This document shows positions 305-5,521 of a stretch of DNA of 5,521 nt, piece after piece. This DNA comes from a virus. Under the pieces are notes generated by a model, which searched no databases, had not been told where the DNA came from, and saw only the letters and a program-made list of their open reading frames with translations. Where the stretch lies: UHGV virus genome UHGV-0231424. The stretch is one strand, 5' to 3'. Positions within the stretch are counted from its first letter, which is position 1; each line of letters opens with the position of its first letter. The translations under genes and the position numbers were made by a program.

Positions 305-1513
305 ATGAACTTCAAAGAACTACTGAAATTACTCGAAAAAGGAGAGGATCTCATGAGCCCTCTCTCGGGAATTGTAGGCGATGTTTCAGGAATCCTCAAT
401 ACGCTGGGCGTAGGCAGAAGGAGGCAGATAAGACAGCAGAAAGAAATGGCAGAAAACGCAGCCAAAATAAATTACAAATACGGAGAAATGGCGGCGGAGA
501 ATGCATTCGAAAGACAGCAAGTGTTATACAACAGGACCTATCAAGACCAAAGTTACGCCAACCAAGTCGCGCAAATGGATGCAGCGGGATTGTCTCCCGG
601 TCTGATGTATGGCAAAGGAGGTGCCGGAGGCGGAGGAGCCGGTTCGACAACCGGTGCTCCAATGGGTGCAACAGGAGCTACAGGAGCAGGATCAGCAGCC
701 GATCCGAATATGCAACTACAGGCATTGATGTCATTGCGACAAGTACGGATGAGCGAACGAAAGAACGAAGCAGAAATCAACCTGCTCAATACGCAAGCAG
801 AAGCACTCAAAGCAGAAGCGGGCAAAAGCAAAGAAGAAACCACGTCAATAATCGAAAAGAGAATATGGCAGGTAAAACAGGAAATGTTCGAAGGCTGGAA
901 AGGCTTTATCGGCACAGCAAATCAACTATGGGACCAGATGGTAAAATGGCAACCCACGGAAAAAACGACGATCGACGGCAAAGAAATCGAGATACCTAAA
1001 TACTTCGAAATAGAGGACGATAAATTCGGGAAGATCGTATTCGGAGAAAAATCATTCCAGGGCGATATGATGAAAGCCGAAAAACAAATCCTCGAAGGAA
1101 CAGCGGCAATCAAAACTCTGGAGAGCATATATGCAGACGAGAAACTATCGGCAGAAATCAACAAAATAAACGCGGACGCATGCAGCGCAATGGCTCAAGC
1201 AGCTTACTTCTACGCAGCGGGCAAAAATCAAGAAGCAGAAGCAAAAGTGGCCGAAGCAAAAAGAAGGACCGAAGAAGCAACCGCAGATCTGCGAGAACTC
1301 CAATACTGGACCGAAATAGCGAATACAATCCTCAAACTCGCGCAAGTAGTAGGAAATATGGTAATCGGAGGAAAAACAGGAAAAGCGATCAGAGAATACA
1401 CGGAAAGAAGGATGAACGAAACACCCCCCAAGAATTCATCGACAGTAACACAACACTACGATCCGGAGATGAATTTTAAGGGAGTAGATAAGACCGTAAC
1501 GACAAAATGGTAG
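305..1513 (+). CDS. VP2: Microviridae VP2-like minor capsid / DNA pilot protein (402 aa)
   Basis: The N-terminal region carries the pattern I recognise from Microviridae VP2/H-type pilot proteins (…NYKYGEMAAENAFERQQVLYNRTYQDQSYANQVAQMDAAGLSPGLMY…). It is followed by a Gly/Ala/Thr-rich low-complexity linker (611-706) and a long coiled-coil-like, charged C-terminal half. Codon usage is typical for this genome. Alternative start at ATG 353 (MSPLSGIVG…), preceded by a strong Shine-Dalgarno aaaaaGGAGAGG (341-347, 5-nt spacing). Confidence 0.85.
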   Translation: MNFKELLKLLEKGEDLMSPLSGIVGDVSGILNTLGVGRRRQIRQQKEMAENAAKINYKYGEMAAENAFERQQVLYNRTYQDQSYANQVAQMDAAGLSPGLMYGKGGAGGGGAGSTTGAPMGATGATGAGSAADPNMQLQALMSLRQVRMSERKNEAEINLLNTQAEALKAEAGKSKEETTSIIEKRIWQVKQEMFEGWKGFIGTANQLWDQMVKWQPTEKTTIDGKEIEIPKYFEIEDDKFGKIVFGEKSFQGDMMKAEKQILEGTAAIKTLESIYADEKLSAEINKINADACSAMAQAAYFYAAGKNQEAEAKVAEAKRRTEEATADLRELQYWTEIANTILKLAQVVGNMVIGGKTGKAIREYTERRMNETPPKNSSTVTQHYDPEMNFKGVDKTVTTKW

Positions 1514-1551: not shown

Positions 1552-2463
1552 GTGTGCCTATATCCAAGTACCATAGAGAATCCAAAGTACGCCAAATCGA
1601 ACGAAAACGCTAAAAGAATAAGAGATCGTCGTCTGAGATGGATACAAATTCCATGCGGACACTGCGAAGAATGCAGACGCGCAAAAGCAAATGAATGGAG
1701 AGTAAGATTGATGGAAGAAATAAAATCCAATCCAAAAAATACTATATTCGCCACGCTGACGTTCTCAGAAGAAAGCCTAAAAAGATTAGAATATGACGAA
1801 AACGAACCGAACAAAACACCTCAAAAAGCAATCAGCCTATTCAGAAAACGATGGTGGAAAAAGCATAAAAAACCACTCAAACACTGGCTAATCACAGAAA
1901 TGGGACACGACAATACCAAAAGAATACATCTACACGGCATTATATGGACAGAACTAACAGAGGAACAATTCGAAAAAGAATGGGGGTACGGCTGGGTATT
2001 CTTCGGGTATGAAGTAAACGAAAGAACAATAAACTACATCATAAAATACATAACAAAAAGAGACGAAAGCAACCCTGAATTCAACGGAAAGATATTCACC
2101 TCAAAAAGAATCGGAATAAACTACATAAACAAAAACTCACTCAAAAGGCATAGATATCAGGATAAATTCACAGAAGAAACATACAGAACAAATTCAGGAA
2201 TAAAAACAGCACTACCAGCATACTACAGACAAAAACTATGGACGGATCAGGAACGCGAAGCCCTCCGGATCATAAAGGAGGAGAAACAAGTAAAATACTA
2301 CAACAAAACCCCTATCAAAGTGGAAACAATAGAACAATACAAAGAGTATGTACACGCAGTAAAATACTGGCAATCAATCAAAAAGTATGACGGAAAGAGA
2401 AAAGAAGGAAATATGCAAAGGATATGCAGACCTGATCATAAAGAAGGAAAAATTAATTCGTGA
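1552..2463 (+). CDS. VP4: Microviridae VP4-like rolling-circle replication initiation protein (Rep, HUH endonuclease; 303 aa, GTG start)
   Basis: N-terminal C-L-Y-P then CGHCEEC zinc-finger-like motif. RCR motif 1 FATLTF (1747-1764), motif 2 HLHGIIW (1927-1947), motif 3 with paired catalytic tyrosines YIIKYITK (2035-2058), matching phiX174 A protein YVAKYVNK. Starts with GTG at 1552 (no in-frame ATG upstream; TAA at 1525). The last ~25 codons (2401-2463) have atypically high NNT codon usage; see findings. Confidence 0.88.
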   Translation: MCLYPSTIENPKYAKSNENAKRIRDRRLRWIQIPCGHCEECRRAKANEWRVRLMEEIKSNPKNTIFATLTFSEESLKRLEYDENEPNKTPQKAISLFRKRWWKKHKKPLKHWLITEMGHDNTKRIHLHGIIWTELTEEQFEKEWGYGWVFFGYEVNERTINYIIKYITKRDESNPEFNGKIFTSKRIGINYINKNSLKRHRYQDKFTEETYRTNSGIKTALPAYYRQKLWTDQEREALRIIKEEKQVKYYNKTPIKVETIEQYKEYVHAVKYWQSIKKYDGKRKEGNMQRICRPDHKEGKINS

Positions 2464-2584
2464 AATATGGGAAACGGAATTTGCAATCAGAAAAGTAGAG
2501 AATATATTGACCAGAAACAGGATAATAAATTCGCCAAAGGAAGAGGAGACATCGGAGATAGATCCACTAATCTTACAAAACTAA
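2387..2584 (+). CDS. Candidate overlapping gene (65 aa, charged/helical) spanning the rep 3' end and the start of the next ORF; alternatively a frameshifted segment
   Basis: Frame +2 ORF MTEREKKEICKGYADLIIKKEKLIREIWETEFAIRKVENILTRNRIINSPKEEETSEIDPLILQN. Third-position T about 10% (genome-typical), versus about 28-30% for the annotated frame over the same nucleotides. Positionally analogous to phiX174 gene K, which overlaps the A end and the C start. Confidence 0.3.
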   Translation: MTEREKKEICKGYADLIIKKEKLIREIWETEFAIRKVENILTRNRIINSPKEEETSEIDPLILQN

Positions 2585-2826
2585 TCGGTGCAGAAGCAGT
2601 ATCCAGACGAAACTTCAAATACGAAGGAACATTCTACGTGACAGAAGACGGAGAAACATTCGACAAGGAATACGTAGAAACTCATAAACCGCAAAGAACA
2701 GGCATCAGCTTCTACGAGGTAAGCAACTGGATATACAACGAAAGAAAACAACTGTACGAACCTATTATCAGAAGGATAGTAATGATCAAAAACACCAACA
2801 TTCAATTATCACTGAACTATGAATGA
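2467..2826 (+). CDS. Hypothetical protein (119 aa) immediately downstream of rep
   Basis: ATG 4 nt after the rep stop, in the same frame. The C-terminal ~80 codons (from about 2585) have genome-typical codon usage and protein-like composition (…FKYEGTFYVTEDGETFDKEYVETHKPQRTGISFYEVSNWIYNERKQLYEPIIRRIVMIKNT…). The N-terminal 39 codons look compositionally off-frame. The stop TGA (2824-2826) overlaps the start of the next gene (ATGAATGA). Confidence 0.5.
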   Translation: MGNGICNQKSREYIDQKQDNKFAKGRGDIGDRSTNLTKLIGAEAVSRRNFKYEGTFYVTEDGETFDKEYVETHKPQRTGISFYEVSNWIYNERKQLYEPIIRRIVMIKNTNIQLSLNYE

Positions 2827-2989
2827 AAAAGTAAAGAAAATCGTAAAATGGATCGCGGTAATAGCAGCCGCAATCGGCGCCGCAGCTGCCGTAATCATGG
2901 AGCAAGGATGCTCTCACAAGCACTACCTCAAAGCAAACGGAATCAAAATCGACACAGTCGAAGTATCAACAACAACAAAAATCAAGTAA
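2819..2989 (+). CDS. Small single-pass membrane protein (56 aa): MNEKVKKIVKWIAVIAAAIGAAAAVIMEQGCSHKHYLKANGIKIDTVEVSTTTKIK; candidate lysis/membrane-targeting protein
   Basis: Not in the supplied ORF track (below its apparent ~60-aa cutoff); found by reading frame +2. ATG 2819 overlaps the upstream stop (ATGAATGA); TAA 2987-2989 is followed 1 nt later by the next ATG. Lys-rich N-terminus, then a 17-20 residue hydrophobic Ala/Ile/Val helix. Only 3/56 NNT codons, which is genome-typical. It fills the gap between flanking genes exactly. Confidence 0.55.
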   Translation: MNEKVKKIVKWIAVIAAAIGAAAAVIMEQGCSHKHYLKANGIKIDTVEVSTTTKIK

Positions 2990-2990
2990 C

Positions 2991-3296
2991 ATGGACAAGA
3001 AATTCAGAAATCAGCTACTTGCTGAAAGCGGAAAAAAAGAGAGCGAAATCGAAAGCGTAAACCTCGAAATCGAAGAAAGAGAGCAATCGAAAAACGGCAT
3101 ATTCGTGCTGATCCGCAACAAGAAAAACAAATGGCTGATCACAATGTGCGGCTCGCTCTTGAACGGAAAGGAATTCGACACTAAAGAGGAAGCCGAAGAA
3201 CACATAGCTAAAAAAGAATGGGAAGACATCCTGACCGCAACATCCGTATTCTTCCTGCACGTATACCATGAAATGAAAAACACTCAAACAAAATAA
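2991..3296 (+). CDS. Hypothetical acidic/charged protein (101 aa) immediately upstream of the major capsid gene
   Basis: ATG 1 nt after the preceding stop; its own stop lies 3 nt before the VP1 ATG. Genome-typical codon usage (~7% NNT). Glu/Lys-rich, with a hydrophobic core segment (GIFVLI…WLITMCGSLL). No motif I can assign. Confidence 0.6.
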   Translation: MDKKFRNQLLAESGKKESEIESVNLEIEEREQSKNGIFVLIRNKKNKWLITMCGSLLNGKEFDTKEEAEEHIAKKEWEDILTATSVFFLHVYHEMKNTQTK

Positions 3297-3299
3297 GCC

Positions 3300-5342
3300 A
3301 TGAAAAAAACATTAGGAGGAGACAGAATCCGGAGCGAAAGCAAAATGGAAGTATATCTGCCCAATTTCGGCAGATCGTCACATAACATAGGAAAAATAGT
3401 TCGAACATCACAAGCATGCGGCACAATCGTTCCCTATTGGTGCCAAATAGGTATGGATGGAACGACGTTCTACATCGACATCACGACAAAAGTAAAAACA
3501 ATGCCGACGACCGGACCCGTATTCGGCAGCTTCAAACATCAAATCGACGTATTCGTAATTCCGATCAGACTCTATATAGCAGCGCTGCACAACAACGCTC
3601 TGGGAGTAGGGCTGAACATGAGCAAGGTGCTGCTGCCGCAATTCAACGTATATTCAGGTACTACATCAATTTACGAAAACGACACCAATAGAGGGCAAGT
3701 CAATCCGAGCTCGCTGCTCTCATATCTGGGAATCAAGGGGTTCGGATATTCTAAAGTCAATCCGCACCTTCGCAGCTTTCCTGCGATATTCAATCTGGCG
3801 TACTGGGACATATTCAAAAACTACTACGCCAACAAACAAGAAGAAAACGCATATGTAATCACCGGAATAGACCATATCTGGAAGAGCATCAGCGTAGAAG
3901 ATGGAGTCAAGCAGCTTAGGACATGGACGAGCAACAAGAGTACGACATACAGGATCGCTCCGACAGCTGATAAACCGTTGTACATCAAACTGGAATTCGA
4001 GGAAAACGTCTCACCAGAAGTGGTCAACGAAATCCAGTTCATGACGAATATTCCCGACACAACGCAGAAATTAAACGAGTTGACGAAACTCGGTGACACC
4101 TTCGTATTCGAACGAACAGACCCGGATGCATTGGGAATTAGGGAACCAAGCAACCTGAGAAAAGCAACTAAGGTCTTCGCATACAAAGTCAAAAAGACTA
4201 TCGAGATCGCATACAACATGAATACGGTCGGAGAGCATCCGATAACAATGCCGGACAACCAGAAGATCAAACTAACACAATTTCCATTAAAAAACATCGA
4301 CGATGAACGGAGTGCAATCTTAGCAGCACCCAGCACCTCGGCATATACGGTAAGTAATGATAAAATGCCATACGCAGCTGCACTCAAAACTCTGGAGCTA
4401 CCGAATTACGACCGCACAAAAACATACCGTAGCTCAAATTCATGGTACTCACAAGCGGGGTTAGCAGTAAAAACATACCTTAGCGACAGGTTCAACAACT
4501 GGCTGAACACCGAGTGGATCGACGGGACGACCGGAGGGATCAACGCGATCACGGCGGTAGATGTGAGCGATGGAAAACTTACGATGGATGCTCTGATCCT
4601 TCAAAAGAAGATTTTCAACATGCTGAACCGCGTAGCCATTACAGACGGCACCTATCAGGCATGGAGAGAAGCGACATACGGGATCAGAAGCACGACGCTG
4701 CCTGAATCTCCTATCTTCTGCGGCGGAATGCAGAGCGAAATCGCATTCGACGAAATCGTATCGAACTCAGCGACAGATGAAGAGCCATTAGGAACACTTG
4801 CCGGCCGAGGAGTCGCAACCATGTACAAATCCGGAAGGGGCTTGAAAATCAAATGCACGGAACCAAGCATGATCATGGCCTTAGGATCGATCACACCTCG
4901 AATCGATTACAGCCAAGGCAACAAATGGTGGACAAGACTGCAAAATATGGATGACTTCCATAAGCCGACATTGGACGCAATCGGATTTCAAGAACTGATA
5001 GCGGAAGAAGCAGCTGCATGGAGTACAGAAACCACCGATGACCACCGACAAACGTACCAATCATTGGGAAAACAACCGTCATGGATCGAATATACGACAG
5101 ACGTAAACGAAACGTACGGCGAATTTGCAGCCGGAATGCCTTTGGCGTTCATGTGTCTGAACAGGGTGTACGAGGAAAACAAAGACGGCTCGATCAAAAA
5201 CGCATCGACATACATCGATCCTACGATATACAACAACATATTCGCAGAGTCGAGATTAAGTTCACAGAACTTCTGGGTACAAGTAGCGTTCGACGTAACA
5301 GCACGTCGAGTAATGTCAGCAAAACAAATTCCAAATCTGTAA
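3300..5342 (+). CDS. VP1: Microviridae major capsid protein VP1 / F-like (680 aa)
   Basis: N-terminal signature SSHNIGKIVRTSQACGTIVPYWCQIGMDGTTFYID…VFVIPIRLY corresponds to the conserved LSHxxxxT…G.LVP…PGDTF…FF.P.RL block of Microviridae F/VP1 proteins. Long, clean ORF with consistent codon usage. Alternative start at ATG 3345 (MEVYLPNF…; GGAG at 3331-3334, 10-nt spacing) would give an N-terminal length more like homologues. Confidence 0.9.
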   Translation: MKKTLGGDRIRSESKMEVYLPNFGRSSHNIGKIVRTSQACGTIVPYWCQIGMDGTTFYIDITTKVKTMPTTGPVFGSFKHQIDVFVIPIRLYIAALHNNALGVGLNMSKVLLPQFNVYSGTTSIYENDTNRGQVNPSSLLSYLGIKGFGYSKVNPHLRSFPAIFNLAYWDIFKNYYANKQEENAYVITGIDHIWKSISVEDGVKQLRTWTSNKSTTYRIAPTADKPLYIKLEFEENVSPEVVNEIQFMTNIPDTTQKLNELTKLGDTFVFERTDPDALGIREPSNLRKATKVFAYKVKKTIEIAYNMNTVGEHPITMPDNQKIKLTQFPLKNIDDERSAILAAPSTSAYTVSNDKMPYAAALKTLELPNYDRTKTYRSSNSWYSQAGLAVKTYLSDRFNNWLNTEWIDGTTGGINAITAVDVSDGKLTMDALILQKKIFNMLNRVAITDGTYQAWREATYGIRSTTLPESPIFCGGMQSEIAFDEIVSNSATDEEPLGTLAGRGVATMYKSGRGLKIKCTEPSMIMALGSITPRIDYSQGNKWWTRLQNMDDFHKPTLDAIGFQELIAEEAAAWSTETTDDHRQTYQSLGKQPSWIEYTTDVNETYGEFAAGMPLAFMCLNRVYEENKDGSIKNASTYIDPTIYNNIFAESRLSSQNFWVQVAFDVTARRVMSAKQIPNL

Positions 5343-5346
5343 TACT

Positions 5347-5521
5347 ATGAAAACAGCAAAAAATAGAAAAGGATGCATCGATAATCCAGACCTTACCTAC
5401 GAGGCAGAACCGAGGGAAGTGAAACTAAGAAAGATAATCAGCGGAGAAGCCAGTAACATGGAGGATGGAGTATTCCCGACAATCTACACGGAAAAAAAAG
5501 ATGGAGTGCGACCCGAATACG
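5347..5521 (+). CDS. N-terminal part (58 aa + split codon) of the 107-aa hypothetical protein that continues at position 1
   Basis: ATG 5347 lies 4 nt after the VP1 stop. MKTAKNRKGCIDNPDLTYEAEPREVKLRKIISGEASNMEDGVFPTIYTEKKDGVRPEY, with no stop before the window end. It joins frame-exactly to the ORF at 1..149. Codon usage is genome-typical. Confidence 0.55.
   Translation, partial: MKTAKNRKGCIDNPDLTYEAEPREVKLRKIISGEASNMEDGVFPTIYTEKKDGVRPEY

Follow-up and report, generated by a model that had tools for sequence, protein, structure and literature searches.

Conserved overlapping reading frames at the 3′ end of the replication gene in a human-gut microvirus lineage

In phiX174, genes B and K overlap the 3′ part of gene A, and K, which encodes a membrane protein, also overlaps the start of gene C. 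Programmed −1 frameshifting is known from phage genes as well, for example dnaX or the tail-assembly chaperone genes G/GT. In the Microviridae outside the phiX group, the reekeekeeviruses have OG63, an overprinted gene at the C-terminal end of Rep, which was predicted from conservation and the ratio of nonsynonymous to synonymous differences (pN/pS) and is missed by gene callers (PMC9865509), and the annotation of the Bdellovibrio phage phiMH2K (AF306496) places orfN inside Vp4. The gokushovirus VP5 (ORF5 of Chp2, Vp5 of phiMH2K) is a small gene after VP4 (PMC3394797). Here we analyze the 3′ end of the replication gene rep in the virus genome UHGV-0231424, a stretch of 5,521 nucleotides (the window) that is a complete circular microvirus genome with every gene on the + strand. 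Two small open reading frames (ORFs), ORF65 and ORF119, lie at this end of rep, and an earlier sequence-only reading of the window had noticed a reading-frame anomaly there, which it ascribed to an overlapping gene, a ribosomal frameshift or compensating indels. We propose, with a probability of about 0.75, that three separately initiated overlapping genes are packed into positions 2387-2584.

The window was aligned with 46 distinct related sequences covering positions 2200-2900, which are 81-95% identical to it in nucleotides and with it gave a set of 47 genomes. The related sequences come from metagenome contigs (L004-L023) and from IMG/VR (L026-L058) and are independent assemblies. Across the 47 genomes, variability by codon phase peaked at the third positions of frame 1 up to 2385, at those of frame 2 from 2386 to about 2530, and at those of frame 1 again from about 2560. 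The pN/pS values, calculated pairwise for each region and frame on the aligned genomes, are given in Table 1. Purifying selection switches frame twice, acting in frame 1 up to about 2385, in frame 2 from 2386 to about 2520, and in frame 1 from about 2551. Both ORFs and both of their ATGs are conserved, and the stops of Rep and ORF65 are variable. The first explanation offered by the sequence-only reading, an overlapping gene in frame 2, is the one that the comparison bears out, as frame 2 is open with its ATG in 47/47 genomes and has a pN/pS of 0.16-0.25 compared with 0.86-1.15 in frame 1. True dual-frame constraint is limited to 2387-2409, the least variable stretch of the alignment. Both peptides of this stretch, '...YDGKRK(K/E)' of Rep in frame 1 and 'MTEREKK' of ORF65 in frame 2, are kept in all 47 genomes, and within 2380-2409 the positions with a coordinate mod 3 of 2 have a nucleotide diversity (pi) of 0.00. 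An alternative-frame ORF with a start, kept open and under purifying selection at the protein level, is the pattern by which overlapping genes of Microviridae are recognized; it is found here, and translation of the ORF is predicted from it.

The sequence-only reading had drawn attention to codon usage, and its counts were reproduced. T is rare at codon position 3, with codons ending in T (NNT) making up 13% of VP1 codons, and the background over VP1, VP2 and the Rep core is 11.5% (157/1360). In frame 1, NNT rises to 30% in 2401-2460 and 28% in 2467-2583, and over 2386-2583 it amounts to 29% (19/66) versus the background of 11.5% (binomial p = 1.2e-4). Frame 2 has 11% (7/65) over 2387-2581, and frame 1 looks coding again further down, with 9% in 2584-2823. 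We attribute the avoidance of T-ending codons in frame 2 and their accumulation in frame 1 to selection at the protein level, which from 2386 to about 2520 would act on frame 2 alone. The two ORFs that the reading had listed, of 65 and 119 aa, are present as described. It had placed the resumption of frame-1 coding after 2585; the return itself is seen as constraint, but the comparative data put it at about 2551. The statement that frame 1 has no start past 2584 is incorrect to the letter, as there is a GTG at 2638, but this codon sits inside the conserved domain and is an implausible start. Homology was not found to stay in frame 1 across 2401-2583; that of Rep ends at about residue 275 (nt ~2376), and none of the relatives has a closed frame 2.

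The upstream gene can be assigned from its sequence as a Microviridae replication initiator (VP4, a phiX A-like HUH endonuclease), since family profiles match over the catalytic core; profile searches gave matches to Pfam REP_ORF2-G2P (PF23343) at 7e-12 and to PHROG 942 (phrog_942) at 2e-30. Over its residues 1 to ~275 the protein shares 40-49% identity with annotated Reps, and the homology ends at residues 270-281 for most of 694 phage-database Reps and at residue 275 against L070. Within the lineage 'KYWQSIKKYDGKRK' is invariant, and the conserved part ends at nt ~2376-2409. The Rep codons past ~2409, about 18 in number, are without protein-level constraint and evolve neutrally, as shown by a stop that varies in position or is lost and by the frame-1 pN/pS of 1.15. 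In the relatives, the Rep stop takes at least four positions, among them those after KRKK, (G/R)NM, HK and INS. The stop is absent in L004 (TGG), L008 (GGA) and L016 (CGA), where Rep and ORF119 form a single ORF of ~420 codons, and most other relatives end Rep 18 codons earlier than the window does, after KRKK. We therefore take the functional sequence of Rep to end probably at ~2376-2409, from where the frame would run on to a chance stop, in the window TGA 2461. This stop (2461-2463) is in the frame of ORF119, one codon ahead of ATG 2467. A recoded TGA (code 4 or 25) at the Rep stop was considered and rejected, as all other genes are intact under table 11 and most relatives use other Rep stops. 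At the other end of the gene, Rep starts with GTG at 1552-1554 here (MCLYPS...), a codon that reads ATG in L003 as well as in two distant relatives, PQ006946 and MG945511. Runs of 6-8 A are present at aligned positions 2380-2385 and 2400-2407 in 27/47 and 33/47 genomes, respectively (A5 and A4 in the window). The run at 2400-2407 underlies the KRKK ending of Rep, and both runs are places prone to sequencing or polymerase slippage errors.

The ATG and residues 1-46 of ORF65 (MTEREKKEICKGYADLIIKKEKLIREIWETEFAIRKVENILTRNR) are conserved in 47/47 genomes, and the frame-2 peptide includes EICKGYADLIIK. The stop of ORF65 lies anywhere between codons 53 and 65, which gives proteins of 53-65 aa among the relatives. 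Starting from ATG 2387 in frame 2, the product would consist of an amphipathic, heptad-patterned helix of 41 residues and an acidic, probably disordered tail. As read from the sequence, hydrophobic residues occupy positions 9, 13, 16, 23, 27, 34, 37 and 41, a heptad-like spacing of 3-4, and this pattern suggests a coiled coil. The predicted structure, a charged amphipathic helix plus the acidic tail, has no hydrophobic or membrane segment. A hidden Markov model (HMM) built from the 47 sequences was searched against 609 ORFs of distant relatives whose Reps are 40-47% identical. The best matches were to the ORF directly 3′ of rep, with E = 3e-6 in MG945515 ('MTNKEW...LLLKKESLFKDIWTIE') and E = 0.005 for the post-rep ORF of bajarodmic virus 18, and weaker matches were found in MG945452 and MG945511. 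In MG945515, bajarodmic virus 18 and MG945511, the ORF65-like ORF overlaps rep by ≤4 nt. We consider that ORF65, as predicted from its conservation, is very probably a real gene. What it might do is a guess of low confidence, drawn from its position beside rep and its predicted structure and from nothing else: it may be a small self-associating (coiled-coil) non-structural accessory protein that acts with Rep or in DNA packaging.

Compared with the described systems, ORF65 resembles phiX174 K in being a small other-frame ORF that reaches from the last part of the replication gene into the gene after it, overlapping rep by 77 nt at its 3′ end and ORF119 by 118 nt at its 5′ end. As in phiX174 gene A, Rep is least conserved where it is overlapped. 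Unlike K, however, ORF65 has a charged amphipathic helix and an acidic tail in place of a hydrophobic segment, and the ORF65-like gene of distant relatives shows no overlap with rep. From this non-overlap it follows that the overlap arose by run-on of rep and 5′ extension of the next gene and not by the birth of a gene inside rep. No K-like similarity of ORF65 was found in Pfam, in PHROG or with phiMH2K orfN, which is annotated as E/K-like; K was judged through these. The likeness to K is positional only. As for OG63 of the reekeekeeviruses and orfN of phiMH2K, the case is one of an extra predicted ORF over the 3′ region of rep in Microviridae outside the phiX group, but ORF65 overlaps rep by just 23-77 nt, and no similarity between ORF65 and orfN was found. 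Like gokushovirus VP5, ORF65 is a small non-structural gene directly downstream of rep. An hmmsearch with the ORF65 and ORF119 profiles gave no match to Chp2 ORF5 and ORF8 or to phiMH2K Vp5 and J (below 1 bit, about −2 bits), and the gene order of VP4, small ORFs, VP1, VP3 and VP2 differs from the gokushovirus orders (PMC3394797).

The third gene, ORF119, would start inside ORF65, from ATG 2467 in frame 1. The initial ~28 codons would be a passenger extension with a sequence dictated by ORF65, and its own conserved sequence would begin at about 2551, over the variable tail of ORF65. Frame 1 is open from 2467 to 2583 and carries the ATG in 47/47 genomes, and the ATG is kept even though codon 27 of ORF65 varies among Ile, Leu and Val. 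It is the sole ATG, GTG or TTG in frame 1 from the Rep stop to 2638. To obtain an expectation, synonymous codons of each genome's ORF65 protein were resampled with the codon usage of this genome. Per independent draw, frame 1 stayed open with a probability of ~0.25-0.28, the ATG appeared with one of ~0.33-0.37, and the two coincided with one of ~0.08-0.10. The stretch is highly diverged at synonymous sites (pS 0.62), so that many of the 47 genomes are in effect independent there. Stop-risk sites were defined as frame-2 third positions preceding AA, AG or GA, and changes were inferred by parsimony on a neighbor-joining tree. Within the ORF119 extension the stop-risk sites carry no T at all. Third-position changes involving T numbered 0/29 at stop-risk sites versus 39/74 elsewhere. 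The stop-risk codons that end in C (ATC 2488 and AAC 2518) never change to T, whereas all 11 other pyrimidine-ending columns do. The Rep tail upstream of 2467 serves as an internal control, where T occurs at five stop-risk columns and makes the variable Rep stops. We suggest that ORF119 probably starts at ATG 2467.

ORF119 is essentially one 50%-identity cluster in a library of 1.8 billion proteins searched with HMMER, together with ~20 truncated or chimeric fragments, and is therefore restricted to the lineage; the search of the whole library gave no distant homologues. In distant relatives only positions ~44-116 of the ORF119 HMM are matched, and the N-terminal extension is missing there. 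HMM positions 51-116 match a 66-aa ORF of MG945515 (E = 0.006), which has a GTG start six residues before the 'YV.DDG' motif, and MG945511 has an ORF119-like ORF of 68 aa. Residues 70-102 of ORF119 (2674-2772, 'RTGISFYEVSNWIYNERK') show a weak, non-significant likeness to homeodomain helix 3 and helix-turn-helix (HTH) structures (PDB Meis1/2, E = 0.09), and no Pfam HTH family was matched by them. Many of the ORF119-related 50%-identity cluster representatives (P0241, P0249, P0254, P0246 and P0251) are chimeras of ORF119 pieces with Rep or ORF65 sequence, and these look like misassembly or recombination among co-occurring strains of an abundant phage.

The overlaps can be related to the codon usage of the genome. 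Relative to ORF65, frame 1 is the −1 frame; relative to Rep and ORF119, ORF65 lies in the +1 frame. Third-position T is rarer before AA, AG or GA (7.4%) than elsewhere (12.7%), and this avoidance means that stops seldom arise in the −1 frame of any gene. Because the −1 frame stays open, the run-on of Rep and the extension of ORF119 would have been cheap to evolve. Meaningless −1-frame ORFs lie over VP2 (226-999, with 257 aa, and 1180-1479) and over VP1 (3416-3691, 4514-4705 and 5081-5350). These long ORFs are an expected by-product of the avoidance of T and have no sign of being genes. The order of genes has also changed. In MG945515 and MG945511, a small membrane-protein gene is located between the ORF65-like and ORF119-like genes, whereas in the lineage of the window the membrane-protein gene, ORF56, comes after ORF119 instead. 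As a result of the swapped order, the core of ORF119 now abuts ORF65 without a start codon of its own.

Several points weigh against our interpretation. The 47 genomes are phylogenetically related, so that 47/47 does not amount to 47 independent trials. The counts of stop avoidance are partly confounded by codon class, and with only A/G-majority columns the comparison becomes 0/28 versus 5/35 (p = 0.06). The invariant A2467 has a twin at 2413, in an ATA-TG context where it is not needed as a start, and conservation of the ATG alone is for this reason weak evidence. The structure model of ORF119 is unusable, with a predicted local distance difference test score (pLDDT) of 39. In distant relatives other than MG945515 the homology of ORF65 is weak, and the sequence is helical and of low complexity. 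When ORF65 and ORF119 were compared pairwise by BLASTP with the ORFs that follow rep in PQ006946 and MG945511, nothing significant was obtained, and neither ORF65 nor ORF119 has a significant Pfam, PHROG or PDB sequence family. Furthermore, the evidence for the three genes comes from sequence comparison and structure prediction. A tblastn search of the phage collection with ORF65 and ORF119 gave no match at E ≤ 1, and the syntenic post-rep ORFs were detected solely by the HMMs of 47 sequences.

Other explanations of the locus were weighed as well. That two compensating single-base indels, real or from assembly, lie in one longer frame-1 protein (Rep or a Rep-adjacent protein) had been suggested by the sequence-only reading and might seem attractive because Rep and ORF119 share a frame with a single stop between them and are fused in three relatives. 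This explanation is refuted by the comparative data, leaving it a negligible chance: the frame 1-2-1 structure recurs in 47 distinct sequences from independent metagenome assemblies, frame 2 has a conserved ATG of its own, the homology of the 694 database Reps ends before 2387, and the indels of the region are multiples of 3. The shared frame also allows read-through of the Rep stop (TGA 2461) to a functional Rep-ORF119 fusion, and L004, L008 and L016 have a sense codon in place of the TGA. However, most relatives end Rep earlier (TAA or TGA after KRKK or (G/R)NM) and have one to three more stops before ATG 2467, and the Rep tail evolves neutrally, which makes such a fusion highly improbable. 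It could further be supposed that frame 2 is untranslated, with its conservation due to a nucleic-acid constraint (RNA structure, or a signal for replication or packaging), or that ORF65 is a by-product ORF, given that its translation is predicted from sequence and that the genome is rich in long spurious ORFs. But the by-product ORFs sit in the −1 frame, whereas ORF65 is in the +1 frame, where avoiding third-position T does not keep stops away. The three-base periodicity, the pN/pS of 0.16-0.25, the conserved ATG, the heptad-patterned conservation and the syntenic post-rep ORFs in distant relatives are signatures of a protein, and we regard an untranslated frame 2 as scarcely credible.

The remaining alternatives concern how the conserved part of ORF119 is reached. 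In a programmed −1 frameshift, ribosomes starting at ATG 2387 would slip from frame 2 to frame 1 within 2520-2584 and make an ORF65-ORF119 fusion of ~145 aa, instead of or besides separate products. The locus does look like the −1 frameshift genes dnaX and G/GT in that an upstream ORF is followed by a −1-frame ORF without a nearby start: frame 1 is the −1 frame of ORF65, the conserved sequence of ORF119 has no nearby start codon, the selected frame passes from 2 to 1 through an unconstrained linker (2521-2550), and A_AAG tetramers are found at 2527 or 2536 in some genomes. However, no more than 3/47 genomes have an X_XXY_YYZ heptamer in the phase of frame 2 at any one position of 2467-2584, A_AAG or A_AAA tetramers at 2527 or 2536 occur in just 17-18/47, and 2520-2550 is the most variable part of the region, with indels of 3 and 6 nt. 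The site near 2576-2584 that the sequence-only reading had proposed is not conserved either, and the frame-2 stop moves between codons 53 and 65. The conserved downstream-frame ATG and the avoidance of frame-1 stops are already seen at 2467-2520, well upstream of any such site, and distant relatives have the two as separate genes with a third gene in between. Frameshifting of this kind is consequently very unlikely. The conserved part of ORF119 could instead be translated from a non-canonical start (e.g., ATT or ATC) or by re-initiation coupled to termination of ORF65, downstream of 2467, with the ATG being incidental. This would agree with the absence of protein-level constraint on the first 28 codons, with the tendency of T avoidance to keep the −1 frame open, and with the MG945515 homologue, which begins just 6 residues before the conserved motif. 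But frame-1 constraint from ~2551 precedes all ORF65 stops except the two earliest (L015 and L016), frame 1 has no ATG, GTG or TTG in 2470-2637, the ATG and open frame occur in 47/47 genomes against an expectation of ~0.1 per independent draw, and T is avoided at stop-risk sites from 2476 on. We regard this alternative as unlikely. Two further scenarios are together quite unlikely: either part of the ribosomes on ORF65 shift −1 within 2520-2550 (e.g., at A_AAG in some strains) and add a helix-linker-ORF119 fusion, making three proteins from two frames, or, in a milder form, the ORF119 extension is recently captured sequence that is open but not yet shaped by selection, an overprinting intermediate resulting from the order swap of the membrane gene and the ORF119 core. 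With three separately initiated genes, by comparison, production of both small proteins and a start of ORF119 at 2467 would be expected.

The positions of the features are collected in Table 1. The product of ORF56 has one hydrophobic segment followed by Cys ('...EQGCSHKHYLKANGIKIDTVEV') and resembles, by eye, ORFs of MG945515 and MG945511 (L070 1114-1317; L002 1088-1300), in which the motif looks like a lipoprotein signal (FTSC and LSSC). It is possible that ORF56 is a lysis or membrane protein. Like ORF65 and ORF119, ORF56 and ORF101 have no significant Pfam, PHROG or PDB family. The window is cut inside the VP3-like scaffold gene, a 107-aa ORF formed by joining 5348-5521 to 1-149 ('...RPEYDIRTDRFEVAIDAM...'). 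In the spacer between this gene and VP2, an 11-bp G/C-rich hairpin (AAGAGGGGGG...CCCCCCTCTT) is located at 179-209 and followed by TTTT; folding of the 155-nt spacer gave z = −4.4 versus shuffles. The hairpin may act as a terminator or as a signal for replication or packaging. In a scan for promoters and terminators, matches were no more frequent than in shuffled sequence.

Close relatives of the window number in the thousands in metagenomes, mostly from the human gut, and the nearest phage-database genomes are faecal Microviridae with Reps that are merely 40-49% identical. A search of bacterial genomes for the host returned as sole match a free 5.7-kb contig (L073; NZ_JACWEU010000076.1, 5673 nt) in a draft assembly of Acinetobacter lwoffii, which belongs to this microvirus lineage and has a Rep 86% identical. 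The contig is unintegrated, could be contamination and says nothing of the host.

Table 1. Coordinates of genes and features in the window, with pN/pS by region among the 47 aligned genomes
Feature	Coordinates	Strand	pN/pS, frame 1	pN/pS, frame 2	Remarks
VP2 pilot protein	305-1513	+			Frame 2
rep (Rep/VP4)	1552-2463	+			Frame 1, 303 aa, GTG start
Rep dispensable tail (putative)	2410..2463	+			Frame 1, over helix-coding part of ORF65; stop position varies
ORF65	2387-2584	+			Frame 2, 65 aa, ATG
ORF65 helix (predicted), residues 3-43	2393..2515	+			AlphaFold2, one helix, pLDDT 94-98
ORF65 acidic tail	2516..2581	+		0.58-0.89	Predicted disordered, pLDDT ~50; length varies
ORF119	2467-2826	+			Frame 1, 119 aa, ATG
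ORF119 ATG (putative start)	2467..2469	+			Last base of ORF65 codon 27 (I/L/V, always NNA) plus TG of Trp28 codon
ORF119 N-terminal extension (putative), ~28 codons	2467..2550	+			Over ORF65; unconstrained as protein, free of stops
ORF119 conserved part	2551..2826	+			'DIGDRS.NL.KLIGAE...YEGT.YVTEDGE...RRIVMIK...QLSL'; starts at ~residue 28
ORF56, small membrane protein (putative)	2819-2989	+			
ORF101	2991-3296	+			
VP1	3300-5342	+			
VP3-like scaffold gene	5348 wrapping to 149	+			
Region: Rep core	up to 2385		0.16	1.23	
Region	2386-2466		1.15	0.16	
Region	2467-2520		0.86	0.25	
Region	2521-2550		1.67	0.58	
Region	2551-2583		0.33	0.89	
Region	2584-2823		0.39	0.80	

For annotation, the result means that an abundant human-gut microvirus lineage carries a conserved gene of 53-65 aa that is usually dropped by gene callers, which report ORF65 in 331 metagenomic protein clusters compared with 2389 for its neighbour ORF119. 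The last ~18 Rep codons and the first ~28 ORF119 residues, as annotated, would be passenger sequence and are in part misleading. The arrangement of the locus is ordinary for the Microviridae, in which gene overlap is classical, and the understanding of the biology of the family is unchanged by it. The locus is a data-rich example of how the avoidance of a single third-position base leaves the −1 frame open and may thereby enable genes to run on, or to be extended at their N termini, over their neighbours.

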